IMG/VR virus record: IMGVR_UViG_2671181118_000005
DNA from: a virus
Taxonomy: Duplodnaviria > Heunggongvirae > Uroviricota > Caudoviricetes
Reading direction: 5' to 3' (one strand)
DNA: 10,154 nucleotides
Under the pieces are notes generated by a model that was given only the letters and a program-made list of their open reading frames with translations, made no database searches and had not been told where the DNA came from. A program made the translations under genes and the position numbers. Each line of letters opens with the position of its first letter. The first letter of the stretch is position 1. Positions 1 to 10,154 of the stretch are shown here, piece by piece.

Positions 1-2454
1 GTAATCAAACGACGATGTGGTTTTCGTCCCCAAATCCGTACTGGATGCGCTGGCGCTGTGGGTGTGCGATTTAATGCCGTCCTGTTCCTGAGACAATACG
101 GCCCGACCACTGGCAGGTTTGCCCTTAATCGTCCAGCCACGCATATCAGGGATCACGCCTGACGGATAAGCGGCTGCAAGTTTCGGGTAAGCAGATTTGT
201 CAAAAGTCTGCCCCTGCATCAGGGCATAACCAGACGGAACGGTATCTGATGGCCACGGGATTGGTGCGCCGACTGGGTAGCTTTCTGGTGGAAGATTTTT
301 CGAGGTATAAACTTCTGCCCAGCCTTCCTCAAAACCATAACCGTCTCTTGAAGAACGGTAGAACAGACCACCATTTCTGTAATGCGCCTTCATCTGCAGG
401 GTCCGGCAACTTCCGACTCCGGTATAGAAGTTAACCAGAATATAGCTGTCGCCAGAGCGGGTGACATTGTAAGCGCCTGATTCGGCATTCCAGGGAACGC
501 CACCATCCGCATCGGCATATGTATCCGTTGCCCTTCTGGCAAAAGCAGCCACATGCGCGGCGGTTAAAGTAATATCTTTGGAACCATCAAATGGAACACC
601 GGATATTTTTCTTGCAGTCTGGAGTTTTGTAGCAGTTGCAGCATTACCAGTGGTGTTCTGATTACCCGTAGTGTTTACACCTGGAAGGTTAATATTTGCA
701 GAACCGTCGAAAACAACTCCACCGATAGATCTTGCCGTCTGCAATTTCGTGGCTGTACTTGCATTACCATTCAATGAACCAGTTAATCCACCTGTAACAG
801 ACAACGGACCTGAAACTGTTCCTCCGGTTGTTGGCAGTGCTCCAATATCTGATGGTGTAGGTTTCTGATGTGAGCTATACATCGTATAAACAACACCATA
901 GGTAACGCTGGAAGGCTTACTCGCTGAATATGTTGGCGAGGTATAAACAGAAACTGACGCATTTGCAGTACAATCCCAATGGATATTTACACTCGTCGCA
1001 TAATTGCCAATCTCAACGTAAATATCATATGTATCGCCGGATGTGTTGATCCAGGCGAAATTCGTTAATCCGACGGCTGTACGCTTCCACAAAGCCCCGG
1101 TAATTCCTTTGGGGTTTCCATTGCCTGCTCGTAGAACCAGTTCTGAAATGCCTGCCTGATGTGGGGAACCGACGTTGTAACCAGCGCCACCAATCAATGC
1201 GATGTAAACGATGGAACTCGCTTGTGGCATGGTAACCGTAGCCAGTTTGAACCACCCAGCCCCGCCAGAGAAAGACATCGTTACTGAATTTAAAGTACCA
1301 ATATCTTTCGGCGTTAATGTTATATCCGCAGTCAGTGCTTTTCCGTTAACTTTTCGGTTAGATGGCACCCTGCTATTCGCATTGTCATTGGCTGCTTTAA
1401 CTGCTTTTGGCGTTGCGGCCAGCGATTCACTGGTGCTATCAACAGCACTGCTAAGTTTCACAACACCTTTAGTTGTAAGGCTTGCGTCTTCCATCGCAAC
1501 TGCACCGGCAATCTCTTCAGCACGATCAGCAGCAGCTTCCGCACGGGTCGCAGCGGATTCAGCAGTAGTTTTGCTCTGAGATGCCGCCGTCGCACTGCCA
1601 GCTGCCTCTGTCGCCTTCGTGGATGCTGTCGTGGCGCTGCCTTTCGCTGCTGATGCCTGTCTGCTCGCCTCATCTTTTGAAGCAGACGCAGATGATGCCG
1701 ATGACGCCGCCGAACTGGCGGACGATGCAGCTGCCATTTTTGAGGATTCTGCACTGGTTTCCGAGGCTTTCGCGTTCGTTTCGGATGTCTTCGCTGCGGA
1801 TGCAGACCTCGCTGCTGCGCTGGCCTGTTCAGCGGCTTCGCCAGCCTTCGTTGTGGCTGTTGAAGCAGACGATGCGGCGCTTTCTGCCGATTTTCCGGCG
1901 GCGGTGGCACTGGCTGAGGCCTGCCCGGCACTTGTTGACGCGGCACTGGCAGACGACGCAGCCGCTGTTTTTGAGCCTGCCGCAGCCGAGGCGCTCTGTC
2001 CCGCTGCCGTTTCAGAAGACCTGGCGTTTGTCTCAGACGTCTTTGCCGCCTTCGCGGAATTGCCTGCCGCCGTTGCCGAGGAAGCGGCACTACTGGCGCT
2101 TGATGATGCGTTCGTTTCTGATGATTTCGCTGCCTCTTTTGAGGCCGCCGCATCCCGGGCTGAGGTGGCTGCTTCTGACGCCTTCGTGGTCGCGGCGGAT
2201 GCAGAAGTGGCTGCTGATTGTTGTGACGCTGCCGCATTCGTTTCTGACGTTTTCGCCGCACCGGCACTGGTAGCTGCCGCGCTTTTTGAGGACTCTGCAG
2301 CAGCACTTTTTGCTGCTTCACGGGCCTTTGTCGATGCCGTTCCTGCGCTGGAAGACGCTGACTGAGCCGACGACGCGGCCTGTCCGGCTGACGTGCTGGC
2401 GGCACGTGCTGAGCCTGCAGCATCGGTTATTACCACTTCCCGGATCGCTATACG
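1..2454 (-). pseudogene. stf: Side tail fibre protein (lambda Stf family), 5'-truncated, C-terminus beyond window start. Frame is open from an in-frame TAG at 2455-2457 to position 1 and has no start codon of its own.
   Basis: Hand translation of the minus strand (codons with lowest coordinate = 1 mod 3). Positions 60-1 give [20 protein letters not shown], matching the recalled lambda Stf C-terminal region; 1740-1380 give Ala/Ser/Thr-rich sequence ([26 protein letters not shown]) matching mid-Stf; 2440-2380 give [16 protein letters not shown], matching Stf around residue 140. Spot checks at 541-600, 901-960 and 1201-1260 show no stops. Confidence 0.8.
1460..2430 (-). repeat. Low-complexity Ala/Ser/Thr-rich coding repeat inside the tail fibre gene; it leaves several frames open on both strands.
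   Basis: Reiterated GCN/TCN/ACN codons in the true frame. The six-frame track shows long stop-free ORFs in other frames (Arg/Pro/Gln-rich on minus, Ala/Asp-rich on plus) typical of such repeats. Confidence 0.6.
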
Positions 2455-3292
2455 CTATTCCGTTAAAGATAATGGGCGGAATAATGATTTGACGGTCAAA
2501 GTTATGATCATCGCTGATGGTGACTGTAACCGTCCCGTTTGGTGTTTCCGTATTACCCCACGTACCAGCCTGTTTCGGGAATGATTTGGATACAGCTTTA
2601 ACGAAGTCACCTCTGACCTGAGTCGCCTCCAGCATGCCCTTAATCGTACAGTTTTCATTTACCGTGACATTGTTGAGCGTCCCGGCGTTCGCATTCACAC
2701 TGCCACTGATATCCGCATTTTTAGCGGTCAGCTTTCCGTCCGGTGTCAGGGAAAATGCCGGTGGATTTCCACCGCTGGTAATGGTGGGGGCCGTCAGGCG
2801 TTTCAGGAACACGTCGTTCATGAATATCTGATCGCCCTGACCAACAAACATCGGTTTTGTGTTGCCATTCGCAGGATTAACCATCGCAATCCTGTCCGCC
2901 GCCAGCAGCACCTGACTCTGCATGCCGTCAGGGGTGTTCTCAATATCCACGATGGCCTCTTTTTCCGGTACATGCTGCACGGCGGTGATGGCATACGTGC
3001 CGTCGTCGTTCTCACGGATACTCACGCAGCGGAACAGGCGCTGGCGCAACGTCGGCAGCTTCAGCCCCCATACGCTGTATTCAGCAACGCCGTCAGGAAC
3101 ACGGCTCACTTTCACCTTCACGCCGTCGGTGACGGACTGAACCTCCACGCTGACCGGACTCCCCTGCCCGTCAACCAGGCTTATCAGCGTGGTGCCGGAA
3201 GATGGCAGCGTGATTTCACGGTCGAGCGTCAGCGTCCGGGTCTGGCTGTTTACCGCCAGCACGCGCCCGCCGGTGCGGATACCCAAGCTGGA
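2318..3292 (-). pseudogene. J: Host specificity / central tail fibre protein J, internal fragment. N-terminal part is missing, the C-terminal receptor-binding end is missing, and the frame runs about 40 codons out of frame into stf before stopping at 2318.
   Basis: ORF translation [29 protein letters not shown]...[14 protein letters not shown]...[30 protein letters not shown] and ...[56 protein letters not shown]... matches the recalled C-terminal third of lambda J. The J frame opens right after a TAA about 3293-3301. Confidence 0.8.
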
Positions 3293-3504
3293 GTGGCGAA
3301 CGTTTTACCCTTGCTGATGAGGTATTCACTGATTTCGCTGTACCACATGTGGCTGAGTGCATTCTGGGAAAGACTGCGTCTCTCGCGCCACGGTTTAAGC
3401 ACCATGCGAAAGCATTTGCCGTCCTCCAGATAAGGCTGGATCTGCCGACCGATAGCGGTGAAGTTACCGCGATGCAATTTGATACCATCTTGTGGGAGGT
3501 TCAC
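3250..3504 (-). pseudogene. NinB/Orf-family recombination protein, N-terminal fragment of about 65 residues joined to J-derived sequence.
   Basis: GTG start at 3502-3504 preceded by GGAGGTG. The motif ERRSLSQN...W resembles the RSLDQNRKLW region of lambda NinB as recalled. The ORF then reads through J-derived DNA to a stop at 3250. Position after ren and the cargo island fits the lambda nin region. Confidence 0.5.
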
Positions 3505-3698
3505 GCTTCACCTCCGCAGAGATCAAACGCTGGATGCAAAATATCGCAGGTGCATTTCTGCATCTGTGAATGGAGAAGAGAGGTTGGATTGTATGTGCGC
3601 ATAAACGTCCCCGTTTAGCGCAGAAGTCACCGGAGTTGTTCAGGCCCCAATGGCATGATTATGGCTGGTTGATTATTGGAAATCAAATGTGCTGAAAA

Positions 3699-4208
3699 TT
3701 AGTCTGCCAAGTCTTCCTCAGTCGCAACTGGGTAATTCCAAATATCAAAAAAAGCTATAGCCTCCTGCCATTTGCTCCATAAGTTATCAAGTACTTGTGT
3801 AGGTTCCGTACTTTTAAAAACAGAATCAGCCGCATCACCGTTATGAACTTCCTCGTACAGTTCCATTATTAGCAGATTAACAAAGTACTGTTTCAACATT
3901 AATGCCTGATTACCTTCTTTCTGCTGGCTATCCTGCTTGATGATCTCCATCGCCCGTACTAGGCACCTGATGATATCCGCTGCATCATTAACGCTCCATT
4001 CAGATCCGCGCTTATCTTTAGCTGATGAATTGGCTCTCTCAGCGCAAGCCTTTAAAGACTCATAAAGGTAAACTCTATTTTGTAGCTGCAGCGCTTTTTT
4101 TGACGTGTACCAACTTGCAAGCGCCGACCCCGCTGCGGCTAATGTGCCAAACGCAGAAATACCTGCTGCTATTGCACTTAAGTCGGCACTGTCAAAGTTC
4201 CACATCAT
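3699..4208 (-). CDS. Hypothetical 169-aa protein with a single N-terminal hydrophobic segment (likely membrane anchor) and a helical, acidic C-terminal domain. Orphan; function unknown.
   Basis: ATGATG start with AAGGTG Shine-Dalgarno about 6 nt upstream. Residues about 10-32 (LSAIAAGISAFGTLAAAGSALASWY) are hydrophobic. AT-rich upstream region, and an upstream terminator separates it from the preceding gene. Confidence 0.55.
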   Translation of the reverse strand: MMWNFDSADLSAIAAGISAFGTLAAAGSALASWYTSKKALQLQNRVYLYESLKACAERANSSAKDKRGSEWSVNDAADIIRCLVRAMEIIKQDSQQKEGNQALMLKQYFVNLLIMELYEEVHNGDAADSVFKSTEPTQVLDNLWSKWQEAIAFFDIWNYPVATEEDLAD

Positions 4209-4383
4209 CGTTACACCTTATATAAATACCCCTCAGTAATATCCAATAAGGTATGTGCACAATCAATATAATTTTATCCGTATCGGCACATAGCGATTTG
4301 AACGCTACTGGTAATGGTATATTTTAGATTATATCGTCCAGTTTACAGCACCCGTATTTTATGAAATGGACTCGCATATTACC
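4209..4383 (-). promoter_or_regulatory. AT-rich putative promoter/operator region for the 169-aa gene, including an inverted repeat ATGTGC-N27-GCACAT at 4253-4291.
   Basis: Non-coding AT-rich DNA between an upstream terminator and the start codon. The inverted repeat was seen by eye; no promoter consensus was scored. Confidence 0.3.
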
Positions 4384-4422
4384 CAAAAAATGCCAGCACT
4401 TCCGTCATCGTAGAATGCTGGC
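4384..4422 (-). terminator. Rho-independent terminator candidate downstream of the 99-aa ORF (minus-strand sense).
   Basis: Perfect 7-bp inverted repeat GCCAGCA ... TGCTGGC at 4392-4398 / 4416-4422, followed on the minus strand by ATTTTTTGGG (plus 4384-4391). Confidence 0.4.
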
Positions 4423-4466
4423 AGTATTTCTAACTAGTGACTTTATTGGAACAGATTCTGACGGAA

Positions 4467-4766
4467 TTATGGTAACACTCGACTCCACTTATCATCCAGC
4501 CACGGCTGGAATTTTACATGTGCCGTTTCTCTGGCGAGGATTGCTCGCGCTCTGTTGAGTATCTGGGGATATTCTTGCTCGATAGAAGTAAAGCGGCCGG
4601 CTTCGCGGTGCTCCGCAACCTGAAGTAGTGGAGTAACGTTCTGGCAGGCAGTTAACATCACATCACCTGCTCGCCATAACCAAGCACGTGCACAAAGTTT
4701 GTTATCAGTGAATTGTTTTGTGATTGGGTATTGTTGAACTGCTAGAACGAGAACGCCAGCATCCAT
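4467..4766 (-). CDS. Hypothetical 99-aa protein, no recognisable motif.
   Basis: ORF with ATG start bounded by an in-frame TAG three codons upstream; weak ribosome-binding site; followed by the terminator-like hairpin at 4384-4422. Confidence 0.4.
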   Translation of the reverse strand: MDAGVLVLAVQQYPITKQFTDNKLCARAWLWRAGDVMLTACQNVTPLLQVAEHREAGRFTSIEQEYPQILNRARAILARETAHVKFQPWLDDKWSRVLP

Positions 4767-4877
4767 TGGCAGTCCCTATAGTAAAACCATAGCTCAGGAC
4801 GCTTCGTTCAGGATAGATAATTTTATTGTGCTTACCTAACTTTCTTACTATAGCACGGTTGAAAAAGTGATTATTAC

Positions 4878-6404
4878 TCAAAAATAAACCTCACCATCAA
4901 CCATATATTTGAGAGTACTTATCGCCTGCTGGGCGGATATTGTTTTCATTAAAGGATAGTGTTTAAAAACAATGCCATTCATAAAATAGATATCACAGGT
5001 TTTATTATCTGTATTGATTATGATTTTTTCGAATGTTTTATAGGCAAGTGTACGACATAGCTCTCGCCCATTTTTACTGGTTAAGTCAATAGCATGAAAA
5101 TCACCAAGTGAACTCACCGCTTTACTCTTCAAAGTTTTTAATGATACAGAAGCCCTTCGTAATTCCTTATCTAATACTCTGATTTTTTCTGCTATAGCGG
5201 TAACTTCAGGCGCAACAGATAATGCAGCAATTAAATTATTAATTTTCATCTGGAGCTCAATAATTTTCAACTCTAAAGTTTCATTAGCATCTTTCTTGTT
5301 TTCAACTGGTTGGATTTTACTACAATTAAAAAGCAACTCATTAATGATATTATAATCAACCAAATCTCTCTTTATTGATGGCCTGTCACATCGATGCAGT
5401 CTTCTCATCGGACAAACATAATAGCCATGCAAACTTCCAGATACCGCATGAACAATCATGGTATTACCACAAGCCTCGCACTTCATAACTGTTCGAAGTA
5501 GATTTATCAACATAGGATTTTTGCTACTATTGCTAATACCAAAAGGTGCCAACCGAATTTCCTGCACAGCGTAAAACAAATCATCTGATATGACTCTGGG
5601 ATAATAGCCAGCGATTTCACTTATTCCTTTACCTCTTGCACGATATGAAGGTACGCATATACCTATCAGAGCTTTATTCGCTAATAATTTTTCAATTACA
5701 GAAGGTCCCCATGCACTTTCTTTTCCTGAGAAATTCTTTACAGCATGATCATTTAAATACTTGGCTATTGCATTCAATGAGCGCCTTTCCATCCTGAGTT
5801 TAAAAATTAGCTCAATAGTTTTCACCCTGTCGGGGTCTGGAACAAAAGCCGTTCTTTTGTCATCCAATGAGAGCCATCTCGGACAAGACGCCGTCATAAT
5901 CGTGCCTGACTCCAGTGCATCCTGCCGTTTTTTCTTCCATGATAATTTAACCCGACTTGACTTTATCTCGCTTTCTTCATTTGCCCTTTGTGCTATAAGT
6001 ATGGCTTTTATTAATGAATATGGCTCATTCAATGAGTCAATATTATAGACTGTATTATCGCAAAGAGTTATAACATCAATACCGTGATTCAAAATCAATT
6101 TCAGACGCTCAATCGCCTCACCGACTTTTTCTCTTGAAAGTCTGTCCAGACTTTCAACTAACAATGTAGTCCCTGGCAATATATAACCATGTTCTATAGC
6201 ATCTAAAAATTCCGAAAAAGCTCCTGATTGTGCATGCTTTCCATTGAATGCGCTTAACCCCAAATCTTCATACGTTACGGTATCAAGGTAATAATCACTA
6301 TTTACCTTTAGCCATTCAGTAATAAGCCTTCTCTGGCGGTTTAATGAATCACCAGACATCTGACTTGGTGATGAAAATCGCATATATGCTATGGCTTTTT
6401 TCAT
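4878..6404 (-). CDS. ybcK: Large serine recombinase, 508 aa (resolvase-type catalytic N-terminal domain, recombinase domain, Cys-rich zinc-ribbon, coiled-coil region). Resembles the DLP12 putative recombinase YbcK.
   Basis: N-terminal AYMRFSSPSQ...R motif typical of serine recombinases; C-x2-C ... C ... C cluster (CEACGNT...YYVCPMRRLHRCDRP). Length and position next to emrE match K-12 ybcK as recalled. AT-rich codon usage. Confidence 0.85.
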   Translation of the reverse strand: MKKAIAYMRFSSPSQMSGDSLNRQRRLITEWLKVNSDYYLDTVTYEDLGLSAFNGKHAQSGAFSEFLDAIEHGYILPGTTLLVESLDRLSREKVGEAIERLKLILNHGIDVITLCDNTVYNIDSLNEPYSLIKAILIAQRANEESEIKSSRVKLSWKKKRQDALESGTIMTASCPRWLSLDDKRTAFVPDPDRVKTIELIFKLRMERRSLNAIAKYLNDHAVKNFSGKESAWGPSVIEKLLANKALIGICVPSYRARGKGISEIAGYYPRVISDDLFYAVQEIRLAPFGISNSSKNPMLINLLRTVMKCEACGNTMIVHAVSGSLHGYYVCPMRRLHRCDRPSIKRDLVDYNIINELLFNCSKIQPVENKKDANETLELKIIELQMKINNLIAALSVAPEVTAIAEKIRVLDKELRRASVSLKTLKSKAVSSLGDFHAIDLTSKNGRELCRTLAYKTFEKIIINTDNKTCDIYFMNGIVFKHYPLMKTISAQQAISTLKYMVDGEVYF

Positions 6405-6659
6405 GGTGACACCTGCTAAAGTATGCTTTTATAAACCTTAGTGGTGAGATATGATTTTTGTTTAATTTTTATTTAAAAAGACAATTAAGGTCACATTATC
6501 TTGAATATACAACAATAATCGTATTGCAATTTTCTTACACCATAATCTTGAAAGCACAAAAGAATGAATAAAAACTAAAGACATTAACAAAAAGCATAAA
6601 ACGAGGCCCATATAAATATACGAGCCTCCATATTTTAGTCGTTTAAAAACAAATTATTT
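6405..6659 (-). promoter_or_regulatory. AT-rich intergenic region; probable promoter region for the recombinase gene.
   Basis: About 255 bp of very AT-rich non-coding DNA between the emrE stop and the recombinase start. Confidence 0.3.
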
Positions 6660-7059: not shown

Positions 7060-7362
7060 TCATTGTGTACCCATTGATGTTCTTTTATATACCCTCAATA
7101 CCCGTTTCATCGCGGCACTCTGGCGACACTCCTTAAAAATCAAATTCGTGCTCACCTTTCCTTCCCATTCTTCTCTGGTAGCGAACCGATAATACACCGT
7201 TCGCCAGACCTTACCATCAACGACTAGGATTCCTGCCCGCGCCATTTTAGCCGCAGCCTGATTTATGCTGGTTACCGTTGCGCCTGTTACCGCGGCAACG
7301 TCCTGCGCACAGAATTTCTTATGAGTCCCCAGGTAATGAATAATTGACTCTTTGCCCGTCAT
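7060..7362 (-). CDS. ren: Ren protein (lambdoid Ren exclusion-related protein), 100 aa.
   Basis: MTGKE.IIHYLGTH...TGATVTSINQAAAKMARAG...VWRTVYYRFATREE matches lambda Ren as recalled. 4-bp ATGA overlap with the P stop, as in lambda. Confidence 0.85.
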   Translation of the reverse strand: MTGKESIIHYLGTHKKFCAQDVAAVTGATVTSINQAAAKMARAGILVVDGKVWRTVYYRFATREEWEGKVSTNLIFKECRQSAAMKRVLRVYKRTSMGTQ

Positions 7363-8060
7363 ACCCTTGCTCCTTTCAGCCCAAACTTAGCTTTGATTTC
7401 TGCGATCTTCGCCAGAGCCTGTGCACGATTTAGAGGTCTACCGCCCATGACAGGAAGTTGTTTTACTGGTTCAGGTATAGCCTCACCACGGTTAATTCGT
7501 GCGGTCATACAGGACAGTTCATCGGCAGCCTTGCGCCGTAATTCCGCGTCAGTCAACGCATTGGCCCGCATGTTCTGATACAGGTTGGTAACCAGCCAGT
7601 AGTGCGCGTTTGATTTCCACGGATAAGACTCTGCATCCGGATACAGCCCGCGCTTCCGGCAATACTCGTAAACCATATCAACCAGCTCGCTGGCGTTTGG
7701 CAGCCCGGCGGTAACGGATGCTTCTTCCCGGCACCAGGCGACAAACTGCCCGGGTGATGGCAGGAATGGTCGATTCTGCCGACGGGCTACGCGCATTCCA
7801 GCGTTAACCTGTTCCATTGTGGTGATCCCGTTTTCCCGAAAAGCCAGCACCCACTGGCGGCGGATTTCGTTCAGTTCATTCTGGTCACGGTTAGCCAGGC
7901 TCGCCGGGAAAGTTGCCAGTAACTGGCTGAACACACCGTTGATGATCTGCGCTACCTGCTGTACCTGTGGCTTTTCGTCGTACTGTTCCGGCATGTTGTT
8001 GGCGATCCGACGCATCTGCTCACGGTCAAAGTTAACCATCTGTGCGGCGATGTTTTTCAT
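7359..8060 (-). CDS. P: Replication protein P (DnaB helicase loader), 233 aa, apparently full length.
   Basis: MKNIAAQMVNFDREQMRRIANNMPEQYDEKPQVQQVAQIINGVF... matches lambda P almost residue for residue as recalled. Start overlaps the O stop (ATGA), as in lambda. Confidence 0.92.
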   Translation of the reverse strand: MKNIAAQMVNFDREQMRRIANNMPEQYDEKPQVQQVAQIINGVFSQLLATFPASLANRDQNELNEIRRQWVLAFRENGITTMEQVNAGMRVARRQNRPFLPSPGQFVAWCREEASVTAGLPNASELVDMVYEYCRKRGLYPDAESYPWKSNAHYWLVTNLYQNMRANALTDAELRRKAADELSCMTARINRGEAIPEPVKQLPVMGGRPLNRAQALAKIAEIKAKFGLKGARV

Positions 8061-8296
8061 AGATCCACCCCGTAAATCCAGTCAGTGTTTGTCAGGTCGA
8101 GTTTTGGTTTGCCGACTGTCACGCCAGCCTGTTGCTTGTTCCGGTTGATTTCGAGCTGGGTCCACTTGTCGCGGAGTTTGGCCGGACTCAGCACGTTACC
8201 GGACCAGAAGTTGTCCTGGCAGGCCCAGCGGAACAGTACACACATGTCGCGGTGGTTACGTCCATCACGTTCACGCATCAGACGGATATCGTTACC
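8057..8296 (-). pseudogene. O: Replication initiator O, C-terminal fragment of about 78 residues; N-terminal domain and the origin iterons are deleted.
   Basis: Minus-strand translation [76 protein letters not shown] matches the lambda O C-terminus. Upstream of about 8296 the same strand is antisense exo sequence. Confidence 0.85.
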
Positions 8297-8947
8297 GGGA
8301 TCGACGTGAGAGCTGTCGAACAGGGGGATGATGCGTGGCACAAATTACGGCTCGGCGTCATCACCGCTTCAGAAGTTCACAACGTGATAGCAAAGCCCCG
8401 CTCAGGAAAGAAGTGGCCTGACATGAAAATGTCCTACTTCCACACCCTGCTTGCCGAGGTTTGCACCGGTGTGGCTCCGGAAGTTAACGCTAAAGCACTG
8501 GCCTGGGGAAAACAGTACGAGAACGACGCCAGAACCCTGTTTGAGTTCACTTCCGGCGTAAATGTTATTGAATCCCCGATCATCTATCGCGACGAAAGTA
8601 TGCGCACCGCCTGCTCTCCCGATGGTTTATGCAGTGACGGCAATGGCCTTGAACTGAAATGCCCGTTTACCTCCCGGGATTTCATGAAGTTCCGGCTCGG
8701 TGGTTTCGAGGCCATAAAGTCGGCTTACATGGCCCAGGTGCAGTACAGCATGTGGGTGACGCGAAAAGATGCCTGGTACTTTGCCAACTATGACCCGCGT
8801 ATGAAGCGTGAAGGCCTGCATTATGTCGTGGTTGAGCGGGATGAAAAGTACATGGCGAATTTTGACGAGATGGTGCCGGAGTTCATCGAAAAAATGGACG
8901 AGGCACTGGCTGAAATTGGTTTTGTATTTGGGGAGCAATGGCGATGA
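8293..8947 (+). pseudogene. exo: Lambda-type exonuclease (Red-alpha / Exo), missing roughly its first 10 codons; fused upstream to antisense O/P DNA, with a fortuitous in-frame ATG at 8132.
   Basis: Translation from [31 protein letters not shown]... to ...[14 protein letters not shown] matches lambda Exo as recalled. bet and gam are not upstream where expected. Confidence 0.9.
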
Positions 8948-9009
8948 CGCATCCTCACGATAATATCCGGGTAGGCGCGATCACTTTCGTCTACTCCATT
9001 ACAAAGCGA

Positions 9010-9038
9010 GGCTGGGTATTTCCCGGCCTTTCTGTTAT
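9010..9038 (+). terminator. Candidate intrinsic terminator downstream of exo (lambda tL3-like position).
   Basis: GGCTGGG-TATTT-CCCGGCC hairpin (7-bp stem with one G-U pair) followed by TTTCTGTTAT. Confidence 0.3.
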
Positions 9039-9098
9039 CAGAAATCCACTGAAAGCACAGCGGCTGGCTGAGAAGATAAATAACAAACAGGAGGATAT

Positions 9099-9718
9099 AT
9101 GAGTCAGGTTGGTAATCATTCATTCGAATTTCCGGCATCGCAAGGTGTACAGGGTGGTACTGTTACACTCTTCCTTACCATACCAGGAAGATCGCTGGCT
9201 CGTTTCCTCGCTTCAGATAATTACGGCCATACACTGGAACGCTCTCAGCGAGAAATTAATCCAAATCGAGTACGAAAATTTTTAAATTATCTCACTAACG
9301 CAGACTCAAGAAATGAGCCTTTTATCATTCCCCCTCTCGTAGGTAACTGTGATTCGAATATAGAATTTGTACCGTTTGGCAACACAAATGTTGGTATAGC
9401 CAGAATTCCCCTCGACGCCGAAATAAAACTTTTTGATGGTCAACATCGTGCAGCTGGCATTGAGATATTTTGCCGAAGTTCCCCATCAACGCTCATGGTT
9501 CCCATGATGCTTACAATGAATCTGCCGCTAAAAACCCGGCAGCAGTTCTTTTCGGACATAAATAACAACGTTTCTAAGCCATCAGCGACCATCAATATGG
9601 CGTATAACGGCCGGGATGATATTGCTCAGGGAATGATATCCTTCCTGACCCAACATACTGTATTTGCCGATATAACCGATTTTGAACACAACGTAGTGCC
9701 ATTAAAAAGTAATATGTG
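9099..9718 (+). pseudogene. DGQHR-motif protein (DndB-like, ParB/Srx-fold family), 3'-truncated after about 206 codons by the IS insertion.
   Basis: ATG at 9099 with AGGAGG ribosome-binding site. Translation contains the family-defining FDGQHR motif (…AEIKLFDGQHRAAGIEIF…). The last 16 codons of the track ORF ([16 protein letters not shown]) are encoded by the IS left end, not by the gene. Confidence 0.7.
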
Positions 9719-9772
9719 TGAACCGCCCCGGGAATCCTGGAGACTAAACTTCCTGAGAAAGAGGTAAACAGG

Positions 9773-10099
9773 ATGACTAAAAATACTCGTTTTTCCCCCG
9801 AAGTCCGTCAACGGGCAGTCCGTATGGTTCTGGAAAGTCAGGATGAATATGACTCACAGTGGGCGGCAATTTGTTCCATTGCCCCAAAGATTGGCTGTAC
9901 GCCGGAGACTCTGCGTGTCTGGGTTCGCCAGCATGAGCGGGATACCGGGGGCGGTGATGGTGGGCTCACCAGCGCTGAACGTCAGCGTCTGAAAGAGCTG
10001 GAACGTGAAAATCGTGAACTGCGCCGCAGTAACGATATCCTTCGCCAGGCTTCCGCTTATTTTGCGAAGGCGGAGTTCGACCGCCTCTGGAAAAAATGA
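9773..10099 (+). CDS. IS629-group transposase OrfA (helix-turn-helix plus leucine-zipper subunit), 108 aa.
   Basis: [60 protein letters not shown]... matches IS629 OrfA as recalled. Confidence 0.9.
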
Positions 10100-10154
10100 T
10101 GCCACTGCTGGATAAGCTGCGTGAGCAGTACGGGGTCGGACCGGTATGCAGCGA
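10096..10154 (+). CDS. IS629-group transposase OrfB (catalytic subunit), N-terminal 19 codons only; made as an OrfAB fusion by -1 frameshifting at the A-rich slippery run.
   Basis: The -1 frame reads [19 protein letters not shown], matching the recalled OrfB N-terminus; slippery sequence GGAAAAAATGATG at 10089-10101 overlaps the orfA stop. Confidence 0.7.

Follow-up and report, generated by a model that had tools for sequence, protein, structure and literature searches.

The window, which is the entire 10,154-nt stretch of DNA that was analyzed (IMG/VR record IMGVR_UViG_2671181118_000005), is part of a degraded DLP12-like lambdoid prophage of Escherichia coli. Strain E2 is 100% identical to the window across 9.7 kb, and 15 further complete genomes are near-identical. 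The gene order on the minus strand is an O fragment, P, ren, emrE, ylcJ, ybcK, a 99-aa open reading frame (ORF), a hairpin followed by a T6 tract, a 169-aa gene, and a ybcN fragment. The coordinates of the features around the ORF are presented in Table 1. Decay of the prophage is apparent from two fusions of truncated genes: O is joined to an inverted exo gene, and ybcN to a tail-gene fragment. The window has lost the upstream promoter region (pR, cro, and the 5' part of O), and only 67 nt separate ren from emrE. The ybcK gene is the last gene of the emrE-ylcJ-ybcK block, which abuts the truncation point described below. In a scan for hairpins followed by T tracts, emrE appears to have a terminator of its own at approximately 6601–6626.

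The product of the 169-aa gene gave no match in Pfam, and the same result was obtained for a 65-aa ORF on the plus strand at 4361–4558. PADLOC returned no match for the 99-aa ORF, the 169-aa ORF, YbcK, or the intact 202-aa protein that is described below. The search of Rfam gave no match in the region, and the sole match is an IS3-family ALIL pseudoknot at the end of the window. Literature searches on ybcK/emrE/prophage, Bro-N/antirepressor, and P22AR found nothing bearing on this locus.

Table 1. Features of the window in the region of the 99-aa ORF
Feature	Positions	Strand	Basis
P	7359-8060	minus	
ren	7060-7362	minus	
ybcK, large serine recombinase	4878-6404	minus	Pfam Resolvase, Recombinase, and Zn_ribbon_recom; annotation
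Junction zone, where similarity to the intact gene stops	4755-4780	minus	DNA alignment and megablast
99-aa ORF, ATG start	4467-4766	minus	P22_AR_C domain only (residues 15-85)
TAT>TAA change (4467-4469) and 8 ancestral codons now untranslated	4443-4469	minus	Alignments; translation past the stop
Ancestral stop codon	4443-4445	minus	
Intrinsic-terminator-like hairpin (10-bp stem, 13-nt loop) and T6 tract	4385-4423	minus	Folding; conservation
169-aa conserved hypothetical gene	3699-4208	minus	phrog_1779, E 1e-102

Domain content of the 99-aa ORF and its intact counterparts

The 99-aa ORF and its ATG start are present as an earlier, sequence-only reading had described them. The same reading had called the ORF an orphan with no recognizable motif, and this description is contradicted by the database matches. 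The translated product matches Pfam family PF10548 (P22_AR_C) with an E-value of 9e-13 and a score of 48.6 bits, over profile positions 3–73 of 73; the curated gathering cutoff for this family is 22.4 bits. A match to phrog_7640 was obtained with an E-value of 4e-62. It is one of four PHROG matches in all, and those to PHROGs named "anti-repressor Ant" are weaker. The name assigned to the ORF by PGAP/RefSeq is "P22AR C-terminal domain-containing protein" (WP_029785662.1), and the ORF is already known in both RefSeq and PHROGs. A 671-bp query containing it matches 1104 of 5426 complete E. coli genomes. The ORF has homologues and a domain and is not an orphan. It is also not a two-domain protein of the Ant/Rha type, since an N-terminal Bro-N, KilA-N, or P22_AR_N domain is missing.

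A phmmer search of 1.84 billion cluster representatives returned 163 representative clusters at E <= 1e-3, many of which are spurious matches to PKD repeats. The giant PKD-repeat proteins were dismissed as homologues, the similarity being that of a motif look-alike. In most of the full-length cluster matches P22_AR_C forms the C-terminus of proteins of 186–307 aa, and an N-terminal Bro-N or KilA-N domain was confirmed in the two cluster proteins that were checked (P0026 and P0029). Stand-alone P22_AR_C proteins of 91–112 aa are found in unrelated lineages (P0082, P0100, and P0107). Judged from these matches, the stand-alone domain is a minority state, though one with precedents.

An AGGGA Shine-Dalgarno-like motif is located 7 nt upstream of the ATG of the 99-aa ORF. 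The pairing energy with the anti-Shine-Dalgarno sequence is -5.6 kcal/mol, which lies at about the best 10% among all ATGs in the window; the values for ybcK and the 169-aa gene are -4.6 and -4.4 kcal/mol, respectively. The ribosome-binding site had been taken as only weak, and it is at least as good as those of these two genes. An AlphaFold2 model of the 99-aa product, calculated from a shallow alignment of 14 sequences, is all-helical with a mean pLDDT of 51.7 and a pTM of 0.30. A PDB sequence search with the intact 202-aa protein gave no meaningful match.

Related genomes and phages carry a gene of 202–250 aa in the slot from ren to ylcH/ybcN of DLP12-like lambdoid prophages (loci L002, L003, L006, L010, L011, L012, and L021–L024). 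This intact gene is found in E. coli SCU-313 (L002), 10153 (L003), STEC17-190, LR-50, 2022CK-00450, PSS-04, and 6883, and in phages PhiR26_1, IdasGreatGrand, and PhiR5_1. The presence of Bro-N followed by P22_AR_C is shown by Pfam for the products from SCU-313 and 10153. The 99-aa ORF corresponds to residues ~100–194 of the 202-aa protein, with amino-acid identities of 84 and 80% for SCU-313 and 10153, respectively, so that its start coincides with the domain boundary. Proteins of this architecture (WP_000211451.1, XSB42083.1 of PhiR26_1, and phrog_245) occupy the same slot, and the range of 80–84% identity applies to their C-terminal 95 residues. Unlike them, the window ORF is without residues 1–100, which hold Bro-N, begins at a new out-of-frame ATG, and is without the last 8 residues. 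As indicated by these alignments, the 99-aa ORF is the C-terminal half of an antirepressor-type gene encoding Bro-N and P22_AR_C. The sequence-only reading had offered a small regulator, an anti-defense protein, or a gene fragment; the last of these fits, as the 3' half of a two-domain gene, and the other two are not supported.

The intact counterparts are annotated as "Rha protein", "anti-repressor Ant", or "P22AR C-terminal domain-containing protein". These database names are annotation only, and the antirepressor activity of the Bro-N and P22_AR_C subfamily is putative. The domain carried by the window ORF, PF10548, is defined in Pfam on the basis of the C-terminal domain of P22 Ant; unlike P22 Ant, the intact relatives of the ORF have Bro-N as the N-terminal domain. 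In PSS-04, Arc-family genes precede a 250-aa allele, and in PhiR5_1 small genes that are annotated as hypothetical only precede a 250-aa allele in matching positions. These layouts, that of PSS-04 in particular, recall the mnt-arc-ant arrangement of P22 immI, and this analogy supports the intact family as antirepressor-like. The window copy differs from P22 immI in that it is without the N-terminal domain, arc, or mnt.

The truncation junction and the decay series

Similarity to the intact genes starts, by megablast, at nt 298–299 of the 609-nt gene, which is a few bases from the ATG of the 99-aa ORF. This ATG aligns to an out-of-frame CTG in the intact gene. Codons 1–4 (MDAG) lie outside the ancestral frame, which is restored by a 1-nt deletion after codon 4; several mismatches accompany this deletion around the junction. 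An in-frame stop is located 4 codons upstream of the ATG. The 111-nt spacer between ybcK and the ORF showed no Bro-N coding similarity above chance in local alignments with shuffles. A faint upstream similarity in the MAFFT alignment was rejected as not real, the local alignment of the spacer being at the chance level.

The truncated form was fetched from 12 loci (the window, ML35, GE3, phage Turner, IR53017, MS 145-7, ET358, WP4-S18, STEC1588, ST866, RM9387, and STEC384). The start MDAGVLVLAV is identical in all 12. The gap from ybcK to the ORF is 111 nt in ten truncated loci, and the same length was measured in the window; in IR53017 an IS2 sits between ybcK and the truncated ORF. In the four loci checked (the window, ML35, GE3, and Turner), neither the ATG nor the Shine-Dalgarno-like motif varies. 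The common start and the common 111-nt spacing argue that the truncation was a single event. When the window is compared with SCU-313, the emrE-ylcJ-ybcK block takes the place of a DUF4041/T5orf172 gene and of the 5' half of the antirepressor-like gene. As read from this alignment, the block is a replacement of the upstream DNA and not a simple insertion.

The ancestral truncated ORF has 107 codons for amino acids, and a TAT>TAA change in the sublineage of the window cut off the last 8. The 107-aa form (P0001) is 99% identical to the 99-aa ORF, and the annotated CDS in the close relatives 55989 and O104:H4, and in others, still runs to the ancestral stop. The 107-aa proteins of phrog_7640 (WP_000338662.1, WP_001351655.1, and XNS39523.1 of Turner) have the same truncated form, with the MDAGVLVLAV start after ybcK; relative to these the window allele is 8 residues shorter.

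Further disrupted forms were obtained from the databases, some of which may be assembly errors. Three are frameshifted (P0016, P0022, and P0024), and the forms P0014–P0018 start only at the internal Met37. SCU-301 retains ~56 codons of the gene, and no remnant was found in DLP12 of K-12. A census was made with a sample of 839 genomes, evenly spaced among the matching genomes. Intact genes are present in roughly 340 of these (~150 + 190), the truncated ORF in ~335, and only a stub of ~110 nt, which is unannotated, in ~170.

The hairpin and T tract

The perfect 7-bp stem (GCCAGCA/TGCTGGC) and the T tract that were described just downstream of the 99-aa ORF, on the same strand, are confirmed. The stem is lengthened by RNAfold to 10 bp, UGCCAGCAUU/AGUGCUGGCA (4391–4423), with 6 G–C pairs, and the T6 tract (4385–4390) follows directly after it. 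The hairpin begins 43 nt past the stop of the 99-aa ORF and ends 176 nt before the 169-aa ORF. Measured from the ancestral stop the distance is 52 nt, and it is likewise 52 nt from the stops of the intact genes in L002, L006, and L011. The folding energy, which had been proposed as a check, supports a stable structure: the hairpin alone has an energy of -15.8 kcal/mol with z = -4.5, and none of 200 shuffled sequences folds as well. The loop is 13 nt (17 nt with the 7-bp stem), with at most 2 weak internal pairs, and is longer than the 3–8 nt that are typical of intrinsic terminators. The consensus terminator scan missed the hairpin because its loop limit is 3–8 nt.

The form of the hairpin is that of an intrinsic terminator, with a G+C-rich stem, an immediate U tract, and a position on the coding strand downstream of a gene; on the opposite strand the same stem is present without a U tract. 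When the entire window was shuffled 40 times with dinucleotides preserved, our scan found a hairpin and T tract at least as good, on one strand or the other, in 13 of the shuffles, and for this reason the weight of the hairpin comes from its position and conservation and not from its energy. A 70-nt segment spanning the hairpin is found in 177 E. coli genomes, and in every one it lies at the 3' end of a P22_AR_C gene. Of the loci fetched, those that carry the hairpin (the window, ML35, SCU-313, PhiR26_1, PhiR5_1, and ET358) all have the 169-aa gene downstream of it, and the intact genes of L002, L006, and L011 share both the hairpin and the 169-aa gene with the window. In L002 a T8 tract is found in place of T6. 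The hairpin is absent from loci with other downstream cargo (10153, GE3, Turner, IR53017, MS 145-7, IdasGreatGrand, STEC17-190, and WP4). The stem is invariant among the loci that carry it and hence gives no covariation signal.

From its position and form, the hairpin is most likely a genuine Rho-independent terminator. It could instead be an inverted repeat that arose by chance, or an element of the 169-aa gene with a role in recombination or regulation, such as part of its 5' leader, and several of the results above are in keeping with this: the loop is larger than typical and gave no call in the consensus scan, comparable sites occur in about a third of the shuffled windows, the stem provides no covariation evidence, and the hairpin travels with the 169-aa gene and not with the P22_AR_C gene. 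Moreover, MS 145-7 carries another hairpin, which makes use of part of the same sequence and has no T tract. This reading is nevertheless unlikely, given the stable G+C-rich 10-bp stem with T6–T8 directly after it, its placement on the coding strand in an intergenic gap at a constant 52 nt past the ancestral stop, the absence of a U tract on the complementary strand, and the lack of a match to an Rfam leader element.

The hairpin had been regarded as a sign that the 99-aa ORF is a real transcription unit, separate from the 169-aa gene. The same hairpin stands behind the intact genes, and only where the 169-aa gene follows, so it provides no evidence for the remnant as a gene or as a transcription unit of its own. 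The distribution among the loci indicates that the hairpin is inherited from the arrangement of the intact gene with the 169-aa gene. The terminators tR2–tR4 of the nin region of phage lambda are read through by N-modified RNA polymerase. The hairpin resembles these in being intrinsic-terminator-like and in lying in the delayed-early rightward region between the replication genes and Q; it differs in having no sequence relationship to them, an unusually large loop, and no remaining upstream promoter region, and its activity is putative. By analogy with lambda, N-modified RNA polymerase would pass through the hairpin in an intact phage. Since the upstream promoter region is gone, the hairpin of the window could stop only transcription coming from ybcK. 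In the degraded prophage it would block this read-through and insulate the 169-aa gene.

Selection on the truncated alleles and probable origin of the ORF

The 12 truncated loci reduce to 8 distinct alleles across a shared region of 264 nt, and 8 distinct alleles were used for each class in the comparison of nonsynonymous and synonymous changes. The neutral expectation is 2.5–3.4 : 1. The states private to truncated alleles are 16 nonsynonymous and 6 synonymous, which does not depart from neutrality (binomial p 0.6–1.0). The states private to full-length alleles are 14 nonsynonymous and 32 synonymous (p <= 1e-8 versus neutrality). The two ratios differ with p = 0.0016 by the Fisher test, in a small sample of 22 and 46 events from few alleles and with recombination as a caveat. 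The changes private to truncated alleles include the radical replacements C>Y, P>H, V>D, R>G, and L>R at positions where the intact genes are invariant.

Pairwise pN/pS values (Nei-Gojobori) over the 88 shared codons are 0.24 for the truncated copies and 0.10 for the intact copies. The remnants in Turner, IR53017, and WP4 have 100% identity to the intact PSS-04 allele in their 3' half but only 91% in their 5' half. This difference between the halves indicates that remnants recombine with intact genes and import constrained sequence. Because the truncated alleles carry segments of intact alleles, pairwise pN/pS was set aside as a measure of constraint and the private states were used instead; imported intact-allele sequence would explain at least part of the value of 0.24. 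In the private states, no purifying selection on the protein of the truncated ORF is detectable, and in this respect the window ORF is unlike the intact Bro-N and P22_AR_C proteins.

The frame is open in 12 of 12 truncated loci fetched, which include the isolated Escherichia phage Turner. Conservation of the frame in related sequences had been put forward as a test for the ORF, and the outcome is divided: the open frames are in favor of a gene, and the neutral ratio of 16 : 6, the nonsense change, the frameshifts, and the deletions are against it. Approximately 5–6% of random substitutions would make a stop, and an open frame of 300 nt after ~22 private changes is unremarkable for that reason. 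Adaptive change could likewise give a dN/dS near 1, and the creation of the ATG followed by a frame-restoring deletion could alternatively be read as selection for re-expression.

The 99-aa ORF is most probably what remains of an antirepressor-like gene after 5' truncation, evolving neutrally and followed by a terminator inherited from that gene's arrangement. An ancestral DLP12-like lambdoid prophage would have carried a gene of ~202 aa for Bro-N and P22_AR_C between ren and ybcN. A single recombination event would then have brought the emrE-ylcJ-ybcK block and removed everything upstream of about codon 100, the whole of Bro-N included. The leftover would begin, by chance, with an out-of-frame ATG, and the 1-nt deletion 11 nt further on would restore the frame. 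Gene callers report a 107-aa CDS because this ATG, returned to the frame by the deletion, is preceded by a usable Shine-Dalgarno-like motif. The later TAT>TAA change shortened this CDS from 107 to 99 aa in the lineage of the window. The persistence of the remnant is probably explained by its short length, its young age, and continued recombination with intact alleles as the downstream cargo modules are swapped. We infer that the remnant is without function.

A working small gene, in which a stand-alone P22_AR_C protein of 99–107 aa is made from the new ATG, is an unlikely interpretation of these data. Such a protein might, for example, be an anti-defense factor, or a decoy or dominant-negative partner that modulates the repressors or antirepressors of lambdoid prophages resident in the same cell. 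The frame is open, the start and Shine-Dalgarno-like motif are shared by truncated alleles that have diverged, that of an isolated phage included, and a complete Pfam domain is retained; short stand-alone P22_AR_C proteins also occur elsewhere, and the pairing of P22_AR_C with N-terminal domains as varied as Bro-N and KilA-N is that of a separable module. Against these points, the private changes are neutral when those of the intact genes are not, and radical replacements have been accepted at otherwise invariant positions. A nonsense change has cost the window allele 8 codons, and other lineages are frameshifted, reduced to a stub, or empty. The absence of a PADLOC match and the low pLDDT of the AlphaFold2 model, which lends no support to an autonomous fold, point in the same direction. 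The more specific proposal that the P22_AR_C-only fragment is expressed from its new start and acts in trans on the intact, antirepressor-like Bro-N/P22_AR_C proteins of other lambdoid prophages, through a decoy or dominant-negative effect, is very unlikely; if it were true, a decayed prophage would affect the induction or superinfection of its relatives in the same cell.

It is very unlikely that emrE-ylcJ-ybcK is a mobile element which YbcK inserted site-specifically into the antirepressor gene, leaving the ORF as a distal half that excision could restore. In favor of this reading, the large serine recombinase encoded by ybcK is complete (Resolvase, Recombinase, and Zn ribbon), the gene sits at the very edge of the block, 111 nt from the junction and thus in the usual position relative to an attachment site, and all carriers share an identical junction. 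Against it, the 5' half of the antirepressor gene is missing from the other side of the block, where ren and emrE are nearly adjacent, the block replaces the upstream DNA of L002 instead of interrupting the gene, and the junction itself contains a 1-nt deletion and several mismatches.

Truncation with subsequent neutral change is an ordinary outcome of mosaic recombination and decay in lambdoid prophages, and the ORF is already annotated. What is new is that the entries of ~99–107 aa would be 5'-truncated remnants of a two-domain gene that evolve neutrally, and these should not be counted as small regulators, orphans, or anti-defense candidates. The significance of this result extends little beyond correct annotation. 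Two cautions follow for similar loci: a clean terminator behind a small ORF may be inherited from an intact ancestor, and a frame of only 300 nt gives little evidence of a gene even when it is open and preceded by a decent Shine-Dalgarno motif. The cargo hotspot between ren and ybcN, together with the uncharacterized 169-aa gene, is of more interest than the 99-aa ORF itself.

The 169-aa gene and variable cargo

The interval from ren to ylcH/ybcN is a cargo hotspot whose gene content differs among genomes (Table). The cargo in the fetched comparison loci includes a gene encoding DUF4041 and T5orf172 domains (annotated as PD-lambda-1 in PhiR26_1), a NACHT protein, a HEPN protein, an alpha/beta hydrolase, and unrelated hypothetical proteins of 118, 260, and 309 aa. 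Exchange breakpoints lie within or directly 3' of the P22_AR_C coding sequence. The terminator-like hairpin is a constant companion of the 169-aa gene, and in other phages the slot of this gene is occupied by defence genes. The N-terminal stretch of its product is hydrophobic, and searches of Pfam and PADLOC with this product returned no match. The 169-aa gene is likelier to be a genuine accessory gene than the 99-aa ORF is.

Coordinates of features in the window and in the comparison loci
Feature	Source	Coordinates	Strand	Remark
169-aa conserved hypothetical gene	window	3699-4208	-	phrog_1779, E 1e-102
Counterparts of the 169-aa gene	SCU-313 (L002); PhiR26_1 (L006); PhiR5_1 (L011)	4047-4556; 4845-5354; 2393-2899
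Hotspot cargo	SCU-313 (L002); PhiR26_1 (L006); L012; 10153 (L003)	886-2286; 1686-3188; 1-591; 4121-4537
Hotspot cargo, further loci	L009; L004; MS 145-7 (L008)	3353-4396; 4137-5066; 3613-4395
Terminator-like hairpin	window	4391-4423	-
Alternative 12-bp hairpin	MS 145-7 (L008)	~3455-3485
Hairpin past emrE	window	~6601-6626	-
PKD look-alike	window	~4632-4730		residues 13-45 of the 99-aa ORF
Divergent small genes	PSS-04 (L023)	1-345		Arc family, DNA-binding
Small genes at matching positions	PhiR5_1 (L011)	442-1415		annotated only as hypothetical
IS2	E. coli IR53017 (L007)	1761-2989
ALIL pseudoknot	window	10054-10154	+	Rfam, 89 bits
Remainder past identity to strain E2	window	9718-10154
Rearranged prophage regions	window	~2400-3504; 8060-9100

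Alternative hairpins

In the allele of E. coli MS 145-7, the 5' arm differs at three bases from that of the terminator-like hairpin of the window. As a result, this arm pairs with ATGACGGAAG rather than TGCTGGCA and makes another hairpin, with a perfect 12-bp stem and no T tract; the 56-nt segment folds at -21.5 kcal/mol. Two alternative hairpins, differing by allele, thus draw on partly shared sequence. The hairpin GAGGCTCGTATATTTATATGGGCCTC (-14.7 kcal/mol) is found directly past the emrE stop codon and is followed by TTTTAT. This hairpin, probably the terminator of emrE, overlaps the beginning of the small ylcJ ORF.

Antirepressor-type alleles and a motif look-alike

A divergent pair of small genes lies upstream of the 250-aa Bro-N/P22_AR_C allele in PSS-04, and small genes are similarly positioned in PhiR5_1. 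The layout resembles immI (mnt-arc-ant) of phage P22 but is located in the nin region. Using phmmer, the 99-aa ORF gave repeated, apparently significant matches to giant PKD-repeat proteins (E down to 1e-21). The stretch FTD..W.W..GD...QNVTP resembles the PKD motif. Homology was rejected in favor of a motif look-alike amplified by the repeats; these matches inflate the count of apparent homologues.

Insertion elements and rearrangement

The ALIL pseudoknot, a frameshift signal of the IS3 family, was detected at the end of the window, and identity to strain E2 ends at 9718. An IS3-family element thus replaces the next gene of E2, which encodes a DGQHR domain. In E. coli IR53017, IS2 occupies the spacer separating ybcK from the truncated ORF, which is still annotated as a CDS despite this insertion. 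The prophage of the window is heavily rearranged: an N-terminal fragment of ybcN is joined to part of a tail-tip gene, an inverted lambda-exonuclease gene adjoins the C-terminal O fragment, and the pR/cro/cI region is missing.
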